Notes: generated by a model from the letters alone, not told the origin. 36,820 nt of DNA from a phage (PZ239915.1); one strand, 5' to 3'. Shown: positions 2,448-36,790, counted from the first letter of the stretch. Translations and numbers: made by a program.

Positions 2448-3578
2448 ATGGCAACTGCAAAAATCACTAACGAACAATTGCGCGAAGAACTGGCTAATGG
2501 CATGACCAACAAGGCAATCGCAGAGAAGTATGGAATGAACATTCGCAACGTTGAATTGCGTCGCAGTAAGCTGGCAAAATCAGGCGAGCTTCATGGAAAC
2601 CCTGGTATCAAGAAGTTAGTCCCTGACGGTTATATGGTCAAAGGAACTTCAACGATGATTGACGCGGCGGGTAATGAAAAGCTTCGCTGGGTTAAAACCT
2701 CTGTAGATAATGAGCGCCTTGAGGTTTTAATGGAGCAAGCTAGAGAGGCATTTTGTTCTGAGTTGCCAAAAGCAGATGCGGTCAGCCACTCAGGCAACGA
2801 AGTTAACTCTGAATTAATGACTCTTTACCCTATTTTCGATATCCATATCGGCATGATGGCGCATCGCCATGAATCTGGTGAGAATTATGACACTAACACG
2901 GCAGAGAAATTAATGGAATCATATTTCGACCATGCAATTTCTGTATCACCTGCGTCAGAGAAAGCCGTTGTTTTAGTTGGCGGCGACTTCCTTCACTCTG
3001 ACGGATTGGAAGCTGTAACCCCAGCGAGCGGACACTGCCTTGATCAGGATAGCCGGTATGCTAAGTTAGTTTATGTTGCGATTCGATCGATTCGTGCCGC
3101 GGTAGAGAAGATGCTTAAGAAGCATAAGAATGTCGAGATTCAGATTATAGAGGGAAATCATGACCAAAGCGGCATGATCTGGCTTCGCGCTGCAATGGCT
3201 GCATTTTATGAAAACGAGAATCGCGTGTTTGTTGATACCAGTCCAGCAATCATGCACAAGACGCGATTTGGCTCAACATTACTTGGTTACACGCATGGTC
3301 ACACAATGAAGAAAGCCGAGGGTCGACTCGCAGCAATGGCGACCGACTACCGCAAAGACTTTGGTGAGTGTGAGTTTGTTTACTGCCACTCCGGGCATTT
3401 TCACCATGCAACTGTTACAGAGTGCACACTTGGTATTGACGAGGTTCACCCAGCACTGGCCAGTAAGGACGCATATGCCGCACGTGGAGGTTGGCGCTCA
3501 TACCGTCAAGCGGCTGCGATAGTTTACCACAAGAATTTTGGCGAGGTTGGTCGCCATATTTACCGCCCAGGCATGTAA
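2448..3578 (+). CDS. calcineurin-like metallophosphoesterase with N-terminal HTH domain
   Basis: Phosphoesterase motifs seen directly: DIHIG, GGDFLHSD, EGNHD, GYTHGH, HSGHFHH. N-terminal TNKAIAEKYGMNIRNVELRR resembles a helix-turn-helix. Stop TAA lies in a promoter box. Confidence 0.75.
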   Translation: MATAKITNEQLREELANGMTNKAIAEKYGMNIRNVELRRSKLAKSGELHGNPGIKKLVPDGYMVKGTSTMIDAAGNEKLRWVKTSVDNERLEVLMEQAREAFCSELPKADAVSHSGNEVNSELMTLYPIFDIHIGMMAHRHESGENYDTNTAEKLMESYFDHAISVSPASEKAVVLVGGDFLHSDGLEAVTPASGHCLDQDSRYAKLVYVAIRSIRAAVEKMLKKHKNVEIQIIEGNHDQSGMIWLRAAMAAFYENENRVFVDTSPAIMHKTRFGSTLLGYTHGHTMKKAEGRLAAMATDYRKDFGECEFVYCHSGHFHHATVTECTLGIDEVHPALASKDAYAARGGWRSYRQAAAIVYHKNFGEVGRHIYRPGM

Positions 3579-3622
3579 ATAGCACATTTTGTTAATAAAG
3601 CCTCAAAGGATTGAGGCAAAAT
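3578..3622 (+). promoter_or_regulatory. conserved box variant (weak -10)
   Basis: AATAGCACATTTTGTTAA, 22 bp, CAAAAT; spacer contains a hairpin. Confidence 0.3.
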
Positions 3623-3652
3623 GAATAAACGATAACGAGATGAGGAGTTATA

Positions 3653-4126
3653 ATGATTTACGTATTTGATATTGACGGAACTATAGCTAATAATGAGCAT
3701 AGAAATCACCTTTTACCATCCAGTGACCTTCACTTGACTTCAAGTTGGAAGTATTACAATAAAGCCTGTTCTGGAGACTCACCAATAATCCCAATGATAA
3801 ACATGATGAACAAACTTGCGGAATTATGTCCTGTTTACATAATGACATCCAGAAGTGATGAAGTTGAATGGAGAACCCTTGAGTGGCTTCAGGATAATGA
3901 GGTTGAGTATGATTCTATATACATGAGAAGTCGATATGACAACCGAAAAGATTACAAAATAAAAGAGGAATGGCTTAATGAAATCAGTGGTGGCGATAAA
4001 GGAAGTGTGGTTATTTTTGAAGATAACCCACAAGTAATTAAGCACCTAAGAAGTTGCGGATACACCGTTATGGCTGTATGTGAATATGAAGAACTACCTA
4101 AAGATTGCGAATCTCACGGAGAATGA
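3653..4126 (+). CDS. HAD-superfamily phosphatase/nucleotidase-like protein
   Basis: N-terminal FDIDGTI (DxDGT, HAD motif I); GAGGAG RBS. Confidence 0.55.
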   Translation: MIYVFDIDGTIANNEHRNHLLPSSDLHLTSSWKYYNKACSGDSPIIPMINMMNKLAELCPVYIMTSRSDEVEWRTLEWLQDNEVEYDSIYMRSRYDNRKDYKIKEEWLNEISGGDKGSVVIFEDNPQVIKHLRSCGYTVMAVCEYEELPKDCESHGE

Positions 4127-4128
4127 AA

Positions 4129-4683
4129 ATGACTAAATTATTTATCCTTAATGGCCCCGCTGGAGTTGGAAAGGACACTATAGCGGATATCATGGTTGAG
4201 ACTGGTGTAGCCAAAGAAAAGGTATCATTCAAGTCACCAATGTTTAACGTTGCAAAAGGAATGCTATCAAGCGATGAATTTGATGGATTCATCAAGAATT
4301 ACGACAATAGAGACTATAAGGAATCGCCTCATGGATTTCTTGGCGGTATGACAGTTCGTGAATTTATGATTTGGATTAGCGAGTCTGTAATGAAGCCAGT
4401 CTTTGGTGATGATATTTTCGGTAAAAGGCTAGCCAAGTCACTTGGTGATGGTTGCTACATTTGCGCTGATGGTGGATTTGCTAGCGAGATTAAGCCACTG
4501 ATCGACGCTGGTGTTGAGGTCACGTTAATCAGATTGCATAGGGCAGGGTACACATTTGATGGCGATAGTCGCTCATACATTCACGGGGTGTGCGCAAGAG
4601 AAATTGATGTTCGTGTTGTTGATTGTGATATTGATGGAACATCAGCATTGGTAAGGCACGTAATAAATAGCACGAATTGCTAA
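4129..4683 (+). CDS. P-loop kinase, deoxynucleoside-monophosphate-kinase-like
   Basis: Walker A GPAGVGKDT near the N-terminus, as in phage dNMP kinases. Start set at the ATG 6 nt after GGAGAA (track gave 4105). C-terminus NSTNC is encoded by the palindromic box. Confidence 0.55.
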   Translation: MTKLFILNGPAGVGKDTIADIMVETGVAKEKVSFKSPMFNVAKGMLSSDEFDGFIKNYDNRDYKESPHGFLGGMTVREFMIWISESVMKPVFGDDIFGKRLAKSLGDGCYICADGGFASEIKPLIDAGVEVTLIRLHRAGYTFDGDSRSYIHGVCAREIDVRVVDCDIDGTSALVRHVINSTNC

Positions 4684-4710
4684 AGATAATAATAAAAACT
4701 GAGTTATCAT
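4666..4710 (+). promoter_or_regulatory. conserved palindromic box + -10-like hexamer
   Basis: AATAGCACGAATTGCTAAAG, 22 bp, TATCAT. Confidence 0.45.
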
Positions 4711-4751
4711 TAACACATCGAAACGAGATGAAACAAAATAGGAAGCACAAA

Positions 4752-4928
4752 ATGACTAAAATGATTTATTGCACCAAAAACAACTCCAAGACGCTGCCAT
4801 TTACAGTTAACAAGCCGTACAATGCAGAGTATCAAGGTGACGGATACTACAAGATTTATGGCGACGATATGACGTGGATTTTAGCGCCGATTGATGGTTC
4901 GCTGGTTGAATTTATTATCGCAGACTAG
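4752..4928 (+). CDS. hypothetical protein (58 aa)
   Basis: Track ORF 4677..4928 trimmed to the ATG at 4752 after AGGAAG; promoter box and CATCGAAACGAGA leader upstream. Confidence 0.45.
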   Translation: MTKMIYCTKNNSKTLPFTVNKPYNAEYQGDGYYKIYGDDMTWILAPIDGSLVEFIIAD

Positions 4929-4954
4929 CGCATCTAAAACATAGCTTTACAAGT

Positions 4955-4983
4955 GGGGGGCCTTTTGGCTCCCCTTTTTTTTG
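4955..4983 (+). terminator. rho-independent terminator
   Basis: 8-bp GC-rich stem (GGGGGGCC/GGCTCCCC), 4-nt loop, then a 9-T run. Confidence 0.6.
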
Positions 4984-5047
4984 CTTCTTTTCCGAACAGG
5001 GCTACTGTATCATGTTTACACTAACTTAAACATTGACAAATAGACAA

Positions 5048-5275
5048 ATGGAGGATCACATGAGGGAAGTAATCAACGCCGCTACGGCGTCAACTGGAGG
5101 GGCAGCGGTAACTGGAGCGGCAACTGGTCAGATGACTATAGCAATAATCAGCCTTATCGCTTTAATCATTTTTGGTGCGTGGGGTGCTTACTGGAAGTTT
5201 AAGGATAGCCAGGCGATTCGGCGCGCTCTTGAATCAGGAGACTTAAAAACAGCAATCAAGATAAGGAGTAAGTAA
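5048..5275 (+). CDS. holin (possible dual-start holin/antiholin)
   Basis: Small protein with a hydrophobic stretch TIAIISLIALIIFGAWGAYW and a charged C-terminus, directly upstream of the endolysin. Two in-frame ATGs (MEDHM) four codons apart. Track start 5033 is a TTG. Confidence 0.6.
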   Translation: MEDHMREVINAATASTGGAAVTGAATGQMTIAIISLIALIIFGAWGAYWKFKDSQAIRRALESGDLKTAIKIRSK

Positions 5276-8690: not shown

Positions 8691-8741
8691 ATTATATCAA
8701 CGACCGCTTATAATGCGTTATCAATTTGTGCTATTTACAGG
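8691..8741 (-). promoter_or_regulatory. conserved box variant + -10 (minus strand)
   Basis: Minus strand reads TAAATAGCACAAATTGATAACG, 22 bp, TATAAT, upstream of the 527-aa gene. Confidence 0.5.
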
Positions 8742-9156: not shown

Positions 9157-9204
9157 GAATATACAGGAAAAGCCCCGAAGGGCTTTAGCAATTCGTGCTA
9201 TTTC
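9157..9204 (-). promoter_or_regulatory. conserved palindromic box + -10-like hexamer (minus strand)
   Basis: Minus strand reads AAATAGCACGAATTGCTAAAG, 23 bp containing a hairpin, TATATT, then CATCTCATCGAAACGAAAC leader. Confidence 0.45.
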
Positions 9205-11992: not shown

Positions 11993-12211
11993 ATGAGCAA
12001 GACAATCACGCTGCAATGCCTTAAGACAAATAATCCAGAGTTCTTAAAAGGTCACAAATATGTAGCAACTCTGGTAGACGGTAAAACATGGGCAGTTAAG
12101 GGGGGATTCCAGGATTACAAATTCCCACTCGAGCACATTCCTGGTGGAAATCTTGGTTTTGTTAGTAGCTGCCGCTCGGTTAAGTTCGTGTTTGAAGTGG
12201 TAATGAAATAG
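11993..12211 (+). CDS. hypothetical protein (72 aa)
   Basis: Track ORF preceded by promoter box, CATAAT and CATCGAAACGAGA leader. Confidence 0.5.
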   Translation: MSKTITLQCLKTNNPEFLKGHKYVATLVDGKTWAVKGGFQDYKFPLEHIPGGNLGFVSSCRSVKFVFEVVMK

Positions 12212-12251
12212 CACGAATTGCTAAACAATGGATCGGGTAGTCGGCTACGAT
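12206..12251 (+). promoter_or_regulatory. conserved palindromic box + -10-like hexamer
   Basis: AAATAGCACGAATTGCTAAAC, 22 bp, TACGAT. Confidence 0.4.
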
Positions 12252-13452: not shown

Positions 13453-13498
13453 AAATAGCACTAATTGCTAAGCCCGCTACGGCTGGTTTTGTTATAGT
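13453..13498 (+). promoter_or_regulatory. conserved palindromic box + -10-like hexamer
   Basis: AAATAGCACTAATTGCTA, 22 bp, TATAGT. Confidence 0.5.
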
Positions 13499-15730: not shown

Positions 15731-15808
15731 GCTCTGCTAGCTCAATTGGATAGCAGCAACGACCTTCTAAGTCGTAGGTTACTGGTTCGAATCCAGTGCG
15801 GAGCGCCA
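15731..15808 (+). tRNA. tRNA-Arg (anticodon UCU), with atypical D-arm
   Basis: Hand-folded cloverleaf: 7-bp acceptor stem (one G-U), U8, D-loop with GG, anticodon stem ACGAC/GTCGT with loop CTTCTAA (U33, anticodon TCT, A37), T-stem ACTGG/CCAGT with loop TTCGAAT, discriminator G and encoded CCA. D-stem has only 3 good pairs. Confidence 0.75.
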
Positions 15809-16641: not shown

Positions 16642-18207
16642 ATGTCTTTAGTATGGGAAGAAATGACCATTCAGGAAAAGATGGCCGTTAAGGCGATATC
16701 AGAACACAGCTTCGAGGGCTTTCTTCGTTGCTGGTTCCAGATCACGCAAGGCGAGCGATACATCCCTAACTGGCATCACAAGTACTTGTGCAGAATAATT
16801 GACGAGATTATCGCAGGAGAGCGCAAGGACACCATCATTAACATAGCACCAGGAAGCGGAAAGACGGAAATTGCCTCAATCCACTTCCCGGCCTATTCGA
16901 TGGTTAAGCTTAGGAAGGTGCGCAACCTTAACATCTCTTTTGCTGACTCCCTGGTTAAGCGTAACTCGAAGCGAGTACGTGACCTTATCAAGTCTCAAGA
17001 ATTTCAGTCACTCTGGCCATGCAAGTTTGGCACTTGCAAAGACGATGAGCTTCAGGTTCTTGATGAGAGTGGCAAGGTTAGATTTGAGTCAATATCAAAG
17101 GCGGCTGGAGGCCAGATTACTGGCGCTCGCGGTGGGTACATAACCGAAACATACAGCGGAGCCGTTCTTTTGGATGACTTTGACAAACCCGCAGATATGT
17201 TATCAGCAGTGTACCGCTCGAATAATCACGTAATGCTTAAAAATACGATTCGCTCACGTCGAGCCAGTTCTGTAAAAGGAAAAGCGACACCAATCATTTC
17301 GATACAGCAGCGGCTTCACGTCAATGACTCAACCTATTTCATGATGGAAGGCGGCATGGGTATAGAATTCGATTTGATTAAGATACCAGCATTAGTTACT
17401 GAGGATTACATTGATTCACTTCCTGACTGGATTAAAGATCAGTTTGCTGAGGACGTACTAAGCAGCGAATACATTGAGCGAGATGGCGTAAAGTACTACA
17501 GCTACTTTCCTAAAAAGGAATCCGTAAACGACCTGGTGGCAATGTGGGATAGCGACCCGTACACATTCCTTAGTCAATATCAGCAGGAGCCAGTAGCGCT
17601 GGGTGGCAACCTAATTAACGTGGACTGGTTCCAGAGAATCAGTGATACGTTCAGACCTCCAGCTAAGTACGACTATCGATTCATAACTTGCGATACCGCA
17701 ATGACCACTAAAAGTTACAGCGACTTCTCTGTTCTTCAGTTGTGGGGCTATAAAGATGCTAAGATTTACCTTATTGATCAGCGCAGGGGTAAATGGGAGG
17801 CCCCAGAGTTGGAGGCTGAACTGCTGGACTTCGAGAAGAAATCAAGGGCAACCAGTCAGTCAGATGGTATCCTCAGAAAGATTATTATCGAGAAGAAAGC
17901 GTCTGGTATAGGCCTGATTCAATCAGCTGGCAGGGTTATGCGAACACCGATAGAGCCATACGTACCGGATAATGACAAGCTAACCAGGGTGATGAGTGCA
18001 CTACCACAGATTAAGGCTGGTAACGTAGTTCTTCCAGAGTCATCGCCGTGGCTAAACGGATTGCTCACTGAGGTTGCGGCTTTTACGGCAGATGACTCGC
18101 ATAAGCACGACGACCAAATTGACTGTCTAACAATGGCGGCAAACCTTGTACTTAACATCGCGGATGATCCTAAGTCGAGACTGATGCGCATAGCTGGAAT
18201 GAAATAG
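16642..18207 (+). CDS. terminase large subunit
   Basis: 521 aa; Walker A APGSGKT in the N-terminal ATPase region, acidic nuclease-type C-terminal half; position before the portal. Confidence 0.85.
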   Translation: MSLVWEEMTIQEKMAVKAISEHSFEGFLRCWFQITQGERYIPNWHHKYLCRIIDEIIAGERKDTIINIAPGSGKTEIASIHFPAYSMVKLRKVRNLNISFADSLVKRNSKRVRDLIKSQEFQSLWPCKFGTCKDDELQVLDESGKVRFESISKAAGGQITGARGGYITETYSGAVLLDDFDKPADMLSAVYRSNNHVMLKNTIRSRRASSVKGKATPIISIQQRLHVNDSTYFMMEGGMGIEFDLIKIPALVTEDYIDSLPDWIKDQFAEDVLSSEYIERDGVKYYSYFPKKESVNDLVAMWDSDPYTFLSQYQQEPVALGGNLINVDWFQRISDTFRPPAKYDYRFITCDTAMTTKSYSDFSVLQLWGYKDAKIYLIDQRRGKWEAPELEAELLDFEKKSRATSQSDGILRKIIIEKKASGIGLIQSAGRVMRTPIEPYVPDNDKLTRVMSALPQIKAGNVVLPESSPWLNGLLTEVAAFTADDSHKHDDQIDCLTMAANLVLNIADDPKSRLMRIAGMK

Positions 18208-18247
18208 CACAAATTGCTAAACACTAAAGCCACGGATGGCGTATAGT
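18202..18247 (+). promoter_or_regulatory. conserved palindromic box + -10-like hexamer
   Basis: AAATAGCACAAATTGCTAAA, 22 bp, TATAGT; 29-bp block GTATAGTTACTTCACACAAACGAGAGGAG identical to 30239-30267. Confidence 0.5.
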
Positions 18248-29445: not shown

Positions 29446-30201
29446 ATGTTAAGTCCAAAGTTTGAAAATCAGTTGCAAAGCCTTTTCCCCGGAGAGATTG
29501 TTACTCTAATCCAGGTTGATGGAACCTCCTTTGGAAGTCTCGTTTACAACTTCCACAATGAGAACATTTCATACACGCCAGAAGAAATCATGCTAGCCCA
29601 AATGAATGGCGAGCCACTACCTGAGAAGACGATTACATTTCGCGGTGAAGAGTACGGGCCTCGACCATTTGGTATCTCGGGTATCAACATGACGTCTGAC
29701 GGCAAGGCCAACAAAGTTACGCTAACAGTATCAAACGTAGACCAGCGCATTAGCGCATTGATCCGTACCTATAATGGATTGGTTAAGGCAAAGGTCACCA
29801 TCTGGATTACTACGCGAGATAACATCAATGAAGACGGAAGCATTGCTGACGGGGACTATCGCAGATTCGTTTACTTCATTGAGCGACCAAAGCAGGTTGA
29901 CTACAAAACGGCATCATTTGAGCTAAGCAGCCCTATGGATATGGATGGCATTTACATTCCAGCGAGACTTGTTCAGTCTGTTTGCTATTGGGCTTCCAGG
30001 GGGTGGTATCGTAGCGGGAATGGTTGCGACTATGCTGGCAATCGTTATTTTAACAAGGATGACAATCCAGTTGATGACCCCTCTTTAGACTTCTGCGCTG
30101 GAACAGTAAACAGCTGTAAGATTAGGTTTGGTGAGAATAATCAGCTTTCATTTGGCGGATGCGCGGCAGCAAGCCTTCAGGCCAAAGCGAATCAGAGCTA
30201 A
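29446..30201 (+). CDS. minor tail protein (lambda gpL-like)
   Basis: 251 aa with a C-terminal Cys cluster (C-x...C-x...C-x4-C), consistent with the metal-binding C-terminus of L-type proteins. Confidence 0.65.
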   Translation: MLSPKFENQLQSLFPGEIVTLIQVDGTSFGSLVYNFHNENISYTPEEIMLAQMNGEPLPEKTITFRGEEYGPRPFGISGINMTSDGKANKVTLTVSNVDQRISALIRTYNGLVKAKVTIWITTRDNINEDGSIADGDYRRFVYFIERPKQVDYKTASFELSSPMDMDGIYIPARLVQSVCYWASRGWYRSGNGCDYAGNRYFNKDDNPVDDPSLDFCAGTVNSCKIRFGENNQLSFGGCAAASLQAKANQS

Positions 30202-30245
30202 ACAGCACGAATTGCTAAAGGAGATTTAAAAAGATGGGGTATAGT
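30201..30245 (+). promoter_or_regulatory. conserved palindromic box + -10-like hexamer
   Basis: AACAGCACGAATTGCTAAAG, 22 bp, TATAGT. Confidence 0.5.
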
Positions 30246-32038: not shown

Positions 32039-35000
32039 ATGGCACAAATGATCAAAACAAACATGAGGCTTTGTGATATGGCTGAAGAGATTAAGATTTA
32101 TGGTGCTAAGGGTGGTAGCCAGAAGCAGCACCAACCAGTGGAACAAGAAGACAACCTGATTTCATTAAACAAGGTTAAGGTATTACTTGCGGTTGCTGAC
32201 GGCGAGGTGGATCCAAACTTCTCAATGAAGGATTTATACCTTGCTGACGTTCCGGTACAAAACCAGGACGGCAGCTACAACTACGATGGTGTTCGAGCTG
32301 AGTTTCGCGCTGGCACGCAGTATCAGGACTATATCGCTGGCCTTGATGGTGCAAACTCAGAGATTCAGGCCTCCAGAGAAATCACAAACGACACCCCGTA
32401 CATCATTGCGGTTAACAATACTCAGCTATCAGCAATTAGAGTTAAGCTGTTTTGGCCTAGACTGGTTAAGCAAGAGAGTAATGGCGACCTGAACGGAACT
32501 ACATGCGAGTATGCAATTGATCTTTCTGTTAATGGTGGCGCTTATCAGGAATATACTCGCGGAGTTGCTAACGGCAAGACCACTACAGGTTACGACCGCA
32601 GCATTCGCGTGAACCTTCCGGCAGAGTTCGATAGCGCCCTGGTTCGAATTCGTAAAATTACGCCAGATTCGACAAGTAGCACGCTGGTGAATGGTATGCA
32701 GATTACCACCTATCAGGAAGTAATCGATGCTAAGTTCCGCTATCCGCTTACAGCACTTGTTTACGTTGAGTTTAGCTCTGACTTGTTCCCTAACGGAATC
32801 CCGACAATCTCAATCAAGAAGCGATGGAAATTGATTCAGGTTCCTACAAACTACGACCCGGAGACAAGAACTTACAGTGGGACATGGAATGGCCTTTTCA
32901 AAATGGCGTGGTCAAATAACCCGGCATGGGTTTTATATGACTTAGTAACAAACCGACGTTACGGACTTGACCAAAGAGAATTGGGTGTAGAGATTGATAA
33001 GTGGGGTCTTTACGAAGCTGCGCAATTTTGTGACCAGATGGTGCCGGATGGTAAGGGGGGCTTAGAGCCTCGTTATCTTTGCGATATGGTTGTGCAGAAC
33101 AAGGTTGAGGCATACACGCTAATTCGTGATATCTGTTCAATCTTTCGTGGCCTGACTTTCTATGACGGCGAAAAGATTGGCATCGTGGTTGATAAGCCTC
33201 GTAACCCATCTTACATCTTCACCAATGATAACGTTGTAAACGGATTGTTCAGTCGCACCTTTGCCAGTGATAAAAGCCTTTACACCACGGCAAACGTTCA
33301 GTTTGATGATGTAGAGAACAACTATCAGCAGGATGTTGAGCCTGTTTTTGAGTTGGAGGCTACTCGCAGATTCGGGTTTAATCCAGTCGACATTACGGCA
33401 ATTGGATGCACGCGGAGAAGTGAAGCAAACAGACGTGGCAGATGGCTCCTGAAAACCAACCTGAGAAGCGAAACCATTAGCTTTACTACCGGGCTGGAAG
33501 GCATGATTCCGATGATTGGCGAGGTGATTGCGGTTAATGACGCGGCATGGTCTAGCAACTATCAGTTAAACCTTTCCGGCCGTATTGAATCAGCTCAGGG
33601 GTTGCAGGTTTTCACCCCGTTTAAAGTTGACGCAGCGCCTGGTGACAGAATTCTTCTGAACAAGCCTGACGGAAGCCCAGAGGCAAGAACTATTGCCAGC
33701 GTTTCGGAAGATGGTAGAACAATCAACCTTAATACTGCCTTTAGTTTTGTAGCTCAGACAGACACGGTATTTGCAATCGACAAGGATAATCTTGCTCTTC
33801 AGCAATACGTTGTGACCGGGATTCAAAAAGCAGATTCTGACGGTTCGGATTCATTCCAGTACACAATTACTGCTGTAGAGTATGACCCGAACAAGTATGA
33901 CGAGATTGACTACGGCGTAAACATTGTTGACCGTCCAACTTCAATTGTTGAGCCTGACAGATTGTCGCCGCCTGAGAACTTAACAGTGTCAAGCTACAGT
34001 AAGGTTGTTCAGGGATTGTCAGTTGAGACAATGGTTATCGGATGGGATAAAGCGCCATACGCCAAAACCTACAATGTTCAGTGGAGGAAAGAAAATGGTA
34101 ACTGGATTAACGTACCCAGAACAGCTAGCACAGAGGTTGATATCGAAGGTATTTACGCAGGAATCTATGACGTTAGGGTTCGTAGCGTATCAGATACTGA
34201 AAACGTGTCTGCCTGGTCTGACATTGTAACGGTATCGCTAACTGGCAAGATTGGTAGGCCATCTGCACCTACGGTTGTCACGGCTTCAACTGATGAGGTA
34301 TTTGGCATCCGTGTTAAGTGGGGTTTCCCTGATGGATCCGGTGACACTGCTTACACTGAACTTCAGCAGGTTCCTGATAATGGTGACGGTACTTACAATC
34401 CTGATAACGCAAGTCTGTTGACCTTACTTCCGTACCCAGCTTATGAATACTGGCACACGCCGATTCAGCCAGGCAAGGTTATCTGGTATCGCGCAAGATT
34501 GATTGACAGAATCGGCAACACTTCTGACTGGTCTGATTTTGCTAGAGGCATGAGTACTGACGATGCCAATATTATCAACGAATACATCAAGGTTGATATT
34601 GAGGGTTCGGAAGGATTTAAATACCTTGAGCAGAATGCGATTCAAAAGAATCAGGACATTCAGAATCAGGCAGAGTCAATTCTTGAGAACGCACTGGCGA
34701 ATGACACTGATGTTCGTCGCATGACCAAGGAGAACGGTAAGCGTAAGGCTGAATATGTTCAGGCTGTTAATCTCATAGCTGATGAAACTCAGGCGCGTGT
34801 AGAGGCTCTTACGCAGCTTAAAGCGCAGATTGATGATGAGGTTGTGTCATCGATTACAGAAGTTCAGACTGCATTAGCAACAGAGACAGAAGCAAGAACT
34901 ACTGCCGACACTCAGCTATCAGCAAGACTTGGTGAAAACGAGGCTGCACTAAACCAGAAGCTGGACGCTTTTTCTAACGCCACATCGACTGGTGTACAGT

Positions 35001-35464
35001 ATGGGATTAGTCTTGGCCTGAAATACAACGGACAGACTTATTCATCCGGCATGAGTATGGAGCTTGTTGGCACTGGTGGAAATGTTCGCAGTCAGTTCAT
35101 ATTTGACGCAAACAGGTTCGCAATCAGTAACGGAATTGGTTCTGGTTCCGGTCAGTGGCAACTCCCCTTTGTTGTCGAGAACGGAAACGTAATCATCCAA
35201 AGCGCAGTAATCGGCGACGGATCAATTACTAACGCGAAGATTGGTAATATAATTTCATCAAATGATTATGTGGCGGGCTCTCAGGGATGGGCGATACTGA
35301 AAAGTGGTGCGTCAGAGTTCAATAACACAACTGTAAGGGGCAATCTTTACGCTAACAATGGTAACTTTGCTTTTAACGGAACCAATAACACGGTTCAGAT
35401 TAACAATAACGGAATAACTGTAAACTTACCGAACGGAGGGAGAGTTGTAGTTGGAGTGTGGTAA
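32039..35464 (+). CDS. central tail fibre / host specificity protein (lambda gpJ-like)
   Basis: 1141 aa; blocks recalled from lambda J are visible (IRKITPDSTSS, QVPTNYDPETRTYSGTWNG...WVLYDLVTNRRYG). Start may be a downstream in-frame ATG (32078). Confidence 0.85.
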   Translation: MAQMIKTNMRLCDMAEEIKIYGAKGGSQKQHQPVEQEDNLISLNKVKVLLAVADGEVDPNFSMKDLYLADVPVQNQDGSYNYDGVRAEFRAGTQYQDYIAGLDGANSEIQASREITNDTPYIIAVNNTQLSAIRVKLFWPRLVKQESNGDLNGTTCEYAIDLSVNGGAYQEYTRGVANGKTTTGYDRSIRVNLPAEFDSALVRIRKITPDSTSSTLVNGMQITTYQEVIDAKFRYPLTALVYVEFSSDLFPNGIPTISIKKRWKLIQVPTNYDPETRTYSGTWNGLFKMAWSNNPAWVLYDLVTNRRYGLDQRELGVEIDKWGLYEAAQFCDQMVPDGKGGLEPRYLCDMVVQNKVEAYTLIRDICSIFRGLTFYDGEKIGIVVDKPRNPSYIFTNDNVVNGLFSRTFASDKSLYTTANVQFDDVENNYQQDVEPVFELEATRRFGFNPVDITAIGCTRRSEANRRGRWLLKTNLRSETISFTTGLEGMIPMIGEVIAVNDAAWSSNYQLNLSGRIESAQGLQVFTPFKVDAAPGDRILLNKPDGSPEARTIASVSEDGRTINLNTAFSFVAQTDTVFAIDKDNLALQQYVVTGIQKADSDGSDSFQYTITAVEYDPNKYDEIDYGVNIVDRPTSIVEPDRLSPPENLTVSSYSKVVQGLSVETMVIGWDKAPYAKTYNVQWRKENGNWINVPRTASTEVDIEGIYAGIYDVRVRSVSDTENVSAWSDIVTVSLTGKIGRPSAPTVVTASTDEVFGIRVKWGFPDGSGDTAYTELQQVPDNGDGTYNPDNASLLTLLPYPAYEYWHTPIQPGKVIWYRARLIDRIGNTSDWSDFARGMSTDDANIINEYIKVDIEGSEGFKYLEQNAIQKNQDIQNQAESILENALANDTDVRRMTKENGKRKAEYVQAVNLIADETQARVEALTQLKAQIDDEVVSSITEVQTALATETEARTTADTQLSARLGENEAALNQKLDAFSNATSTGVQYGISLGLKYNGQTYSSGMSMELVGTGGNVRSQFIFDANRFAISNGIGSGSGQWQLPFVVENGNVIIQSAVIGDGSITNAKIGNIISSNDYVAGSQGWAILKSGASEFNNTTVRGNLYANNGNFAFNGTNNTVQINNNGITVNLPNGGRVVVGVW

Positions 35465-35465
35465 T

Positions 35466-35498
35466 AAATAAAGCCCCTTAATTGGGGCTTTTCTTTTA
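35466..35498. terminator. bidirectional terminator between convergent J-like and RBP-like genes
   Basis: A-rich run, AGCCCC/GGGGCT stem, T-rich run. Confidence 0.6.
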
Positions 35499-36467
35499 GT
35501 AGAAGTTTGGGATAAATGGAAGTGCCATTGATATGTTCGTGTCGAAAGGAAACTGAGCGCCTGATTGCGTCGAGTAGTTACCAATTACAGAGCCAGGAAC
35601 AGCCCTAACAGAGCCTCCAGACATGCAGACCCCCTTGTACCTTAAGTTGTTGTAACCTCCAGTAACTCTAGTCGTAGCTCCGCATCTAAGCAGCGGGAAG
35701 AATCCACCATTTATTGACTGGTATCCATTATTGATCTGAATGAATCCACCAAGAACAAATGGTCGCCTAACGCTCGAAAAAACAATCTGACCAGAGCTGT
35801 TTGACATTGTAAGTCCGGGTCCAGCTAGTGGTGGTTCATTCCTGAATATCACCAACTGAACGTAAGTACTTGCCGCAACATCATCTGTACCTCCGTAGGT
35901 TATATCCCTACACCATATTGTTGATCCATCTGATTCAAGTGATACGTTTGGATTATCCCACTTGCCGAATGGTATTCCGCTAACTGGTAGCGATGCTTCA
36001 CCGTTAACCTGTATGCCCCCAACCCAGGCCGCAGACATTAGCCGCGAGTTGCTTGATATAGCAAGGAAATCAGTTGAGTTCTCAACAAGTATTCCAGGAC
36101 TTGATGAGGATGAAGCCGGTAGTATCTCAAAGCAATTCCCTGCAAAGTCAATTATTCGACCATTAGCACCATTGAAGTTACTGAGCGTTATCCTACCAGT
36201 GCCGTCATTTACCTTTTGAAACCCGTTCATGTAATAAACTTCGGGTATAACATCGTAAGCGTCAACGTGGACTGCTTTCGTTGGTAGGCAGAAAGCCGTA
36301 GAGCCAGGAGACATTGTCAATCCAAAATCCCACGAACTTGCTGGGGTTGAAAGTCCATTGGTATTTATTGATCCAGTCACAGCGGGGGCCCTTAATCCTG
36401 CCGTGATTTCCATCGCTGGCCTTCCGTCATTCAGGTCTATTAGAATACCCTGCGGCATTATTTCCAC
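35496..36467 (-). CDS. putative receptor-binding protein
   Basis: 323-aa Gly/Ser/Asn-rich ORF convergent with the J-like gene and co-oriented with (overlapping) a small lipoprotein gene; arrangement resembles T5 oad/llp. Confidence 0.5.
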
Positions 36468-36703
36468 TCCTTACTTCCGTGATCAGCTACTGACCCACCG
36501 TAACCGCCACCGACCTTGCTTTCAATTCCAGCGTAGCGAATATCAACCTCACCCGCCGGAACAACTACACCGCCTTTCCACTTAGACACGCACACGCCGT
36601 TTGCTTGCGTTGCACACCAACCATCCGGGCGAGGACCTGAAGAACAGCCCACAATCATGATTGCTGCTGCTGCGATGATTGCTGATTTGATTAATTTATT
36701 CAT
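36458..36703 (-). CDS. small lipoprotein, putative superinfection-exclusion factor (Llp/Cor-like)
   Basis: 81 aa; signal peptide with lipobox IVGCSS plus two further Cys ([10 protein letters not shown]); directly upstream of the RBP-like gene; promoter box upstream on the minus strand. Confidence 0.5.
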
Positions 36704-36743
36704 TTTGTATTCCTTAGTAATTTCGTTTCGTTTCGATGGAGTA

Positions 36744-36790
36744 ATAATACAACCGTCAGTGAGGAATGTCTTTAGCTATTCGTGCTATTG
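36744..36790 (-). promoter_or_regulatory. conserved box variant + -10-like hexamer (minus strand)
   Basis: Minus strand reads AATAGCACGAATAGCTAAAG, 23 bp, TATTAT, then CCATCGAAACGAAACGAAA leader before the lipoprotein gene. Confidence 0.45.

Follow-up and report, generated by a model that had tools for sequence, protein, structure and literature searches.

The minus-strand gene pair facing the J-like tail gene in the window (the whole stretch of phage DNA that was analysed, 36,820 nucleotides, PZ239915.1) very probably serves an Rtp-like siphophage of the T1 family as its cassette for LptD-specific host recognition and superinfection exclusion. It consists of a gene for a 320-residue receptor-binding protein (RBP) and a gene for an 81-residue lipoprotein. 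At the DNA level the region shares 98.2% identity with Escherichia phage vB_EcoD_SU57 (SU57; Drexlerviridae, Braunvirinae) and 79–93% with many Rtp-like coliphages. The phage is predicted to use LptD (the LptDE translocon) and not FhuA as its terminal receptor; this assignment follows from the family of the RBP, from the matches to solved structures and from the LptD dependence of phage OzMSK. Such a module is already known: papers from 2021–2025 cover the concept as well as the receptor, the structures and the mechanism of exclusion. The window contributes a further, almost identical member and shows clearly where the boundaries of recombination lie. Such a locus lets the terminal receptor, here an essential and conserved protein, be read from the phage sequence, which is useful for the design of phage cocktails, for the prediction of cross-resistance and for the engineering of resistant production strains (as was performed for OzMSK).

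Gene layout and expression signals

The coordinates of the genes and signals are given in Table 1. The ORFs of the lipoprotein and of the larger protein were found on the minus strand, converging on the J-like gene across a bidirectional terminator, in the arrangement described by the initial annotation. The terminator hairpin lies 6 nt downstream of the J-like stop codon, and the end of the RBP gene lies 4 nt beyond it. Its stem of 8 bp contains five G–C pairs and is accompanied by T-runs on both strands; the calculated folding energies are −13.9 and −13.8 kcal/mol (z = −3.1 and −3.8). The same terminator is annotated on both strands in SU57.

Table 1. Features of the locus and copies of the promoter box; positions are counted from the first nucleotide of the window
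Feature	Position	Strand	Description
J-like gene	32039..35464	+	1141 aa; faces both minus-strand ORFs
J C-terminal segment	35250..35464	+	Co-varies with RBP subtype; presumed RBP docking site
Intrinsic terminator	35470..35491	both	Bidirectional; between J-like gene and RBP gene (terminator scan)
RBP gene	35496..36458	−	320 aa; stop codon 35496-35498 included; DUF6453, Rtp44/OzMSK_038/RBP-Oekolampad family
Shine–Dalgarno AAGGAG, RBP gene	36467..36472	−	Within 3' end of lipoprotein gene; 8 nt ahead of ATG 36458
Lipoprotein gene	36458..36703	−	81 aa; predicted superinfection-exclusion factor, Rtp45 family (six-frame ORF list)
Shine–Dalgarno AAGGA, lipoprotein gene	36711..36715	−	7 nt ahead of ATG 36703
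Promoter region	36744..36789	−	Box AATAGCACGAATAGCTAAAG (36770-36789) overlapping sigma-70-like AAGACA-17-TATTAT (36772-36744; promoter scan)
Box AATAGCACGAATTGCTAAAG, copies	636-655, 4666-4685, 12207-12226, 13454-13473, 18203-18222, 30201-30220	+	
Box AATAGCACGAATTGCTAAAG, copies	8716-8735, 9183-9202, 36770-36789	−	

The longest ORF for the RBP in the six-frame list (35496..36467, minus strand) starts with GTG and encodes 323 residues. This mechanical choice, with an overlap of 10 nt with the lipoprotein gene, had been adopted initially and is not upheld: the GTG at 36467 begins on the last base of the Shine–Dalgarno sequence AAGGAG (36472-36467) and was rejected as a start. Translation almost certainly starts three codons past the GTG, at the ATG at 36458, which yields a product of 320 residues and shares a single nucleotide with the lipoprotein stop codon (TAATG). 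The ATG is preferred because of its spacing from the Shine–Dalgarno sequence, because the conserved N-terminus of the family (M-x-Q-G-I-x-I-D-x-N-D-G-R) starts at this codon and because an ATG start is annotated for the RBP gene in SU57, OzMSK and Rtp. Ribosome-binding sites are annotated at the same spot for the RBP gene in SU57 and OzMSK, and at the position of the lipoprotein Shine–Dalgarno sequence in SU57. The TAATG overlap probably couples translation of the RBP gene to that of the lipoprotein gene.

In the literature, loci of the LptD-RBP type are recognized by an ORF of 930–960 bp immediately downstream of gpJ and beside a small lipoprotein gene (PMC13035648; PMC8594841). In the window the RBP ORF comprises 960 bp of coding sequence (963 bp with the stop codon), ends 31 nt past the J stop and adjoins the lipoprotein gene; this placement of both genes directly downstream of gpJ matches all described LptD-type loci.

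The lipoprotein gene has its own copy of a promoter box, as had been noted before. The 20-nt box AATAGCACGAATTGCTAAAG, which contains the inverted repeat TAGCA N5 TGCTA, is present in nine copies in the window at up to three mismatches, compared with 0.02 expected by chance. The copy at the locus differs from it by one mismatch and lies 67 nt upstream of the lipoprotein ATG. Seven aligned copies are oriented as the downstream gene and share a common layout of box, −10-like element (TATAGT or TATTAT), CATCGAAACGA leader, Shine–Dalgarno sequence and ATG. The box also precedes the locus in SU57, OzMSK and Rtp. According to the Rtp genome paper, that phage reportedly carries about ten conserved inverted repeats, said to be sites for the HTH regulator Rtp52. 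Neither the window nor the SU57 stretch examined yielded a homologue of Rtp52, a possible binder of the box; from the synteny with Rtp, the homologue should be encoded in the part of the genome beyond the window.

The two proteins and their homologues

The 81-residue protein has the lipobox IVG|C with the acylation cysteine at position 20, Ser at +2 and two further cysteines at positions 30 and 38, and its N-terminus is hydrophobic (15-residue Kyte–Doolittle mean 2.45); its earlier description as a lipoprotein with two extra cysteines is thus borne out. Pfam family PF24052 (‘Phage lipoprotein’) matched residues 1–80 over its entire profile (1–80 of 80) with 130.3 bits (cut-off 27). A search of PDB sequences at E ≤ 1 returned chain 9rps_D, which is Rtp45 (E = 1.2e-34), and two chance hits. 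In direct comparisons the protein is 100% identical to SU57_00044 and 91% identical to OzMSK_039; the identity to Rtp45 is 79% over aligned residues and 74% by BLASTP. Residues 21–60 are nearly identical to those of Rtp45, with Cys30 and Cys38 conserved and CATQAN at positions 30–35 (CATQAS in Rtp45), and the last ∼20 residues diverge, with a 5-residue indel.

The larger protein is rich in Gly, Ser and Asn (12.2, 10.9 and 7.5%, respectively; 30.6% combined), in agreement with the initial annotation. Residues 4–297 matched the complete profile (1–291 of 291) of Pfam family PF20051 (DUF6453) with 461.8 bits (cut-off 25). Among PDB sequences the sole match at E ≤ 0.01 was chain C of entries 9RPT, 9RPW and 9RQI (9rpt_C, E = 1.3e-66; query residues 2–320, chain residues 2–321), the RBP of phage Oekolampad, to which it is 44% identical over its full length. 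Direct comparison gave identities of 98.4% to SU57_00043, 97.5% to OzMSK_038 and 40% to Rtp44. Neither protein matched a family in NCBIfam, and Pfam contained no further family for either beyond DUF6453 and PF24052.

Public labels of the RBP family are inconsistent and often misleading, comprising ‘membrane protein’ (RefSeq), ‘moron’ (PHROG 1265), ‘hypothetical protein’, ‘exonuclease’ (one Klebsiella phage) and ‘putative tail tip protein’. A receptor-binding label was seen only in OzMSK, in which OzMSK_038 is annotated as ‘putative LptD-receptor binding protein based on experimental evidence’. A literature search found no virion proteomics placing a protein of the DUF6453 family at the tail tip.

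Homologues of both proteins were also observed in more distant phages. In phiEco32 (a Kuravirus podophage) the product of phi32_21 (3902-4933 of its stretch) belongs to DUF6453 (84 bits) and matched 9rpt_C with E = 2e-9; directly upstream of it, phi32_20 (2932-3900) encodes a protein of 322 residues with a Phage_Tail_Tip domain. A lipoprotein of the Rtp45 family with conserved cysteines (124 bits; 9rps_D, E = 1e-15) is encoded by phi32_106 (1926-2207 of a second stretch), which lies among early genes ∼45 kb from phi32_20/phi32_21, so that the lipoprotein and RBP homologues are unlinked. These matches suggest that phiEco32-like podoviruses may also use LptD as a terminal receptor; the only relevant paper found in the literature searched does not make this link and proposes the LPS core instead, by analogy. 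Klebsiella phages of the genus Webervirus (for example FZ10, mtp13 and F20) encode an RBP homologue with ∼31% identity and a lipoprotein with ∼64% identity over the mature part. In Klebsiella Drexlerviridae the two genes are ∼10 kb apart and not adjacent, and the lipoprotein is far better conserved. Among lambdoid coliphages, mEp515 encodes an RBP homologue (41% identity) and mEp021 a lipoprotein homologue (44%); lipoproteins of this kind might make lysogens resistant to LptD-targeting phages. The E. coli-type locus was also present in records labelled as phages of Pseudomonas syringae (PsgS01F) or Campylobacter jejuni (A127 and A131). PsgS01F shows 90% DNA identity and, at 44,679 bp, has the same length as coliphage UALMA_PCEc3; these three records probably carry wrong host labels or represent contaminating coliphages.

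Receptor, mechanism and extent of the cassette

In Drexlerviridae and related siphophages, allelic RBP loci located directly downstream of gpJ, together with cognate exclusion proteins, set the terminal receptor, and one such allele is specific for LptD (Maffei et al., 2021; PMC8594841). This rule was confirmed across 101 siphoviruses in a 2026 preprint, in which four unrelated RBP families at the locus were assigned to FhuA, BtuB, LptD and YncD, one receptor each (bioRxiv 10.64898/2026.04.02.716166). Dependence on LptD has been described for OzMSK, Bas01, Bas02 and Bas18. OzMSK, the phage with the 97.5%-identical RBP, fails to infect two lptD loop-deletion mutants from the BASEL study and an engineered BL21 derivative with a deletion of lptD loop 11 (Black et al., 2025; PMC13035648); three loop-conservation groupings are described in the same paper. 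The initial annotation had inferred a module for receptor specificity and superinfection exclusion, had listed FhuA, BtuB, LptD and similar proteins as candidate receptors and had called for a comparison with relatives of known receptor. The inference is supported by the published experimental and structural work on close homologues, and the comparison with OzMSK singles out LptD from that list. The further claim that the pair is the most likely host-range determinant in the window stands for the specificity towards the terminal receptor only. Since LptD is essential and conserved, the strain-level host range probably rests more on a lateral fibre or tailspike, the gene for which is located past the window's end in SU57.

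LptD might be necessary for infection and not sufficient, with the C-terminal domain of J recognizing a second receptor as in Bas01 (NupG and LptD), in which case the locus would be half of the determinant. Dual-receptor Braunvirinae phages with NupG-specific GpJ domains have been reported (bioRxiv 10.64898/2026.04.02.716166), the J protein of the window is 95.9% identical to that of Rtp, and the Rtp RBP is 96% identical to that of Bas01 (PMC12685063). This arrangement is nevertheless considered unlikely: the C-terminal 257 residues of J are 85.6% identical to those of JeanPiccard (Bas02), a reported LptD phage, and a deletion within lptD alone rendered cells resistant to OzMSK (PMC13035648), although the latter result shows necessity only.

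It is much less probable still that the module serves another outer-membrane protein (FhuA, BtuB or YncD), as the analogies with T5 and Cor might suggest. T1 itself uses FhuA, which was counted in favour of such a receptor, as was the annotation of the vB_Ec-G8 lipoprotein as ‘Cor superinfection exclusion protein’. The RBP families for FhuA, BtuB, LptD and YncD are, however, unrelated, and the RBP of the window belongs to the LptD family; its only match in the PDB is an RBP bound to LptDE, and its 97.5%-identical relative belongs to an LptD-dependent phage. Neither protein matched the T5 pb5 or Llp chains in the PDB sequence searches (E ≤ 0.01 for the RBP, E ≤ 1 for the lipoprotein). That the 320-residue protein is no part of the virion but a ‘moron’ or a membrane protein of the host cell, as implied by PHROG 1265 (‘membrane protein’, category moron) and by RefSeq records, is scarcely credible: it has neither a hydrophobic segment (maximum 19-residue Kyte–Doolittle mean 0.96) nor a signal peptide, its homologue is a soluble protein on the extracellular face of LptDE in cryo-EM (PMC12685063), and the label was rejected on the grounds of the missing hydrophobic segment and this LptD-binding homologue.

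For the LptD-specific cassette, the homologous structures provide a detailed model (Dunbar et al., PNAS 2025; PMC12685063). In 9RPT the Oekolampad RBP is inserted into the extracellular side of the open LptDE translocon, contacting extracellular loops EL3–5 and EL11 of LptD through an interface of ∼1,700 Å2. In 9RPS Rtp45 is bound at the periplasmic side of LptDE(M), on strands β5–8 of LptD and between LptE and LptM; its residues 30–35 form a β-sheet with LptD residues 318–323, and Cys30 and Cys38 form a disulfide. The Rtp45 hairpin moves EL4 outwards by up to 20 Å, which makes binding of the RBP impossible. AlphaFold models of Rtp45 and of the complexes were reported to be wrong in the same study.

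In the mechanism that we infer for the window, including the timing of expression, the attachment to J and the exclusion phenotype of this phage, a single promoter upstream of the lipoprotein gene would transcribe both genes. The RBP would sit, attached noncovalently, on the C-terminal tip of the central fibre formed by the J-like protein. Upon infection its distal loops would enter the lumen of the LptD β-barrel from outside and contact extracellular loops 3–5 and 11 in the open state of LptDE, and this insertion would render adsorption irreversible. After export the lipoprotein would be acylated at Cys20, and Ser at +2 would direct it, as a mature protein of ∼61 residues held by the Cys30–Cys38 disulfide, to the inner leaflet of the outer membrane. 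It would then bind LptD from the periplasm between LptE and LptM and extend its hairpin up the lumen, so that EL4 would be displaced outwards and RBP binding blocked; with LptD blocked, superinfection would be prevented and progeny would not be lost on cell debris. No in vivo exclusion assay for Rtp45-type proteins was found in the literature search, in which the support is structural. With identities of only 40% to Rtp44 and 44% to the RBP of the solved complex, the RBP may bind in a mode that differs from that complex in detail.

The extent of the cassette was delineated by comparison with Rtp. The J-like protein contains the Pfam domains FNIII-A_GpJ, Phage-tail_3 and Phage_Tail_Tip (the latter at residues 971–1109); its identity to Rtp43 is 95.9% overall and drops to 72% over the last 60 residues. 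The nucleotide identity to Rtp is ∼90% through J, falls to ∼50–60% from roughly 35200-35260 onward, remains low across the whole RBP gene and returns to 80–95% from roughly 36520. The mosaic junctions are sharp and lie within the last ∼70 codons of J on the left and the last ∼20 codons of the lipoprotein gene on the right. Among the tblastn matches listed for the J C-terminus, those spanning the last ∼37 residues came only from JeanPiccard, from two vB_EcoS isolates and from three phages of the genus Dhillonvirus, and most of the others ended near residue 206–220. JeanPiccard and the genus Dhillonvirus are reported to target LptD (PMC8594841). The core of the lipoprotein, which contacts the receptor, is retained between RBP subtypes sharing just 40% identity. 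The pattern fits the horizontal exchange of RBP subtypes together with a matching J tip, as the literature proposes.

A more specific proposal is advanced tentatively, as one that is possible but somewhat short of probable. The unit of exchange would not be the RBP gene by itself but a cassette that takes in the last ∼70 codons of J, the RBP gene and the last ∼20 codons of the lipoprotein gene (∼35250-36520). The tip of J and the N-terminus of the RBP would dock as a matched pair, a single lipoprotein of the Rtp45 type would act in cross-exclusion against phages with any of the LptD-RBP subtypes, and an RBP of the OzMSK type might bind LptD in a manner unlike that in the Oekolampad complex. 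If this is true, the J tip and the RBP N-terminus must be swapped together.

Comparison with known systems

OzMSK (vB_ecoS_OzMSK; PQ659294) has the same gene order, strand, 1-nt overlap and convergent terminator as the window. It differs in a 693-bp DNA methylase gene (PF01555), also observed in Msk, which separates the promoter box from the lipoprotein gene (4367-5059 of the OzMSK stretch, corresponding to 36704-36769 of the window); in the window and in SU57 the box stands directly ahead of the lipoprotein gene without a methylase gene. The window carries a single tRNA gene, for tRNA-Arg (anticodon TCT; 15731-15808, plus strand), and a single tRNA-Arg is likewise reported for OzMSK (PMC13035648).

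In Rtp (NC_007603) the architecture of the locus and the promoter box are as in the window, and Rtp45 shares the lipobox, the disulfide cysteines and the LptD-contacting strand with the lipoprotein. Rtp44, in contrast, represents a different subtype of LptD-RBP, as its identity of 40% indicates. Oekolampad (Bas18) belongs to another genus, Dhillonvirus. Its RBP gene occupies the same place downstream of gpJ and beside a lipoprotein gene, and the ∼30 N-terminal residues of the RBP and a central G-I/V-P-F-x-K/R-W-D block are strongly conserved with the window, whereas the loop regions have diverged. The partner lipoprotein of Oekolampad is ∼35% identical to Rtp45 (PMC12685063), while that of the window is of the Rtp45 type.

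The parallel with T5 oad (pb5) and llp drawn in the initial annotation holds for the functional logic, in which an RBP at the tip of the central fibre is paired with an adjacent outer-membrane lipoprotein whose binding to the same receptor, from the periplasmic side, leaves the RBP unable to bind. It does not extend to a family relationship, as no sequence match to pb5 or Llp was obtained; judged from sequence, the pair is analogous to oad/llp and not homologous. The receptor of T5 is the TonB-dependent transporter FhuA (pb5–FhuA structure 8A8C, cited in PMC12685063), and the modes of exclusion differ: the effect of Llp on FhuA is one of long-range allostery, that of Rtp45 on LptD a steric displacement of EL4 (PMC12685063).
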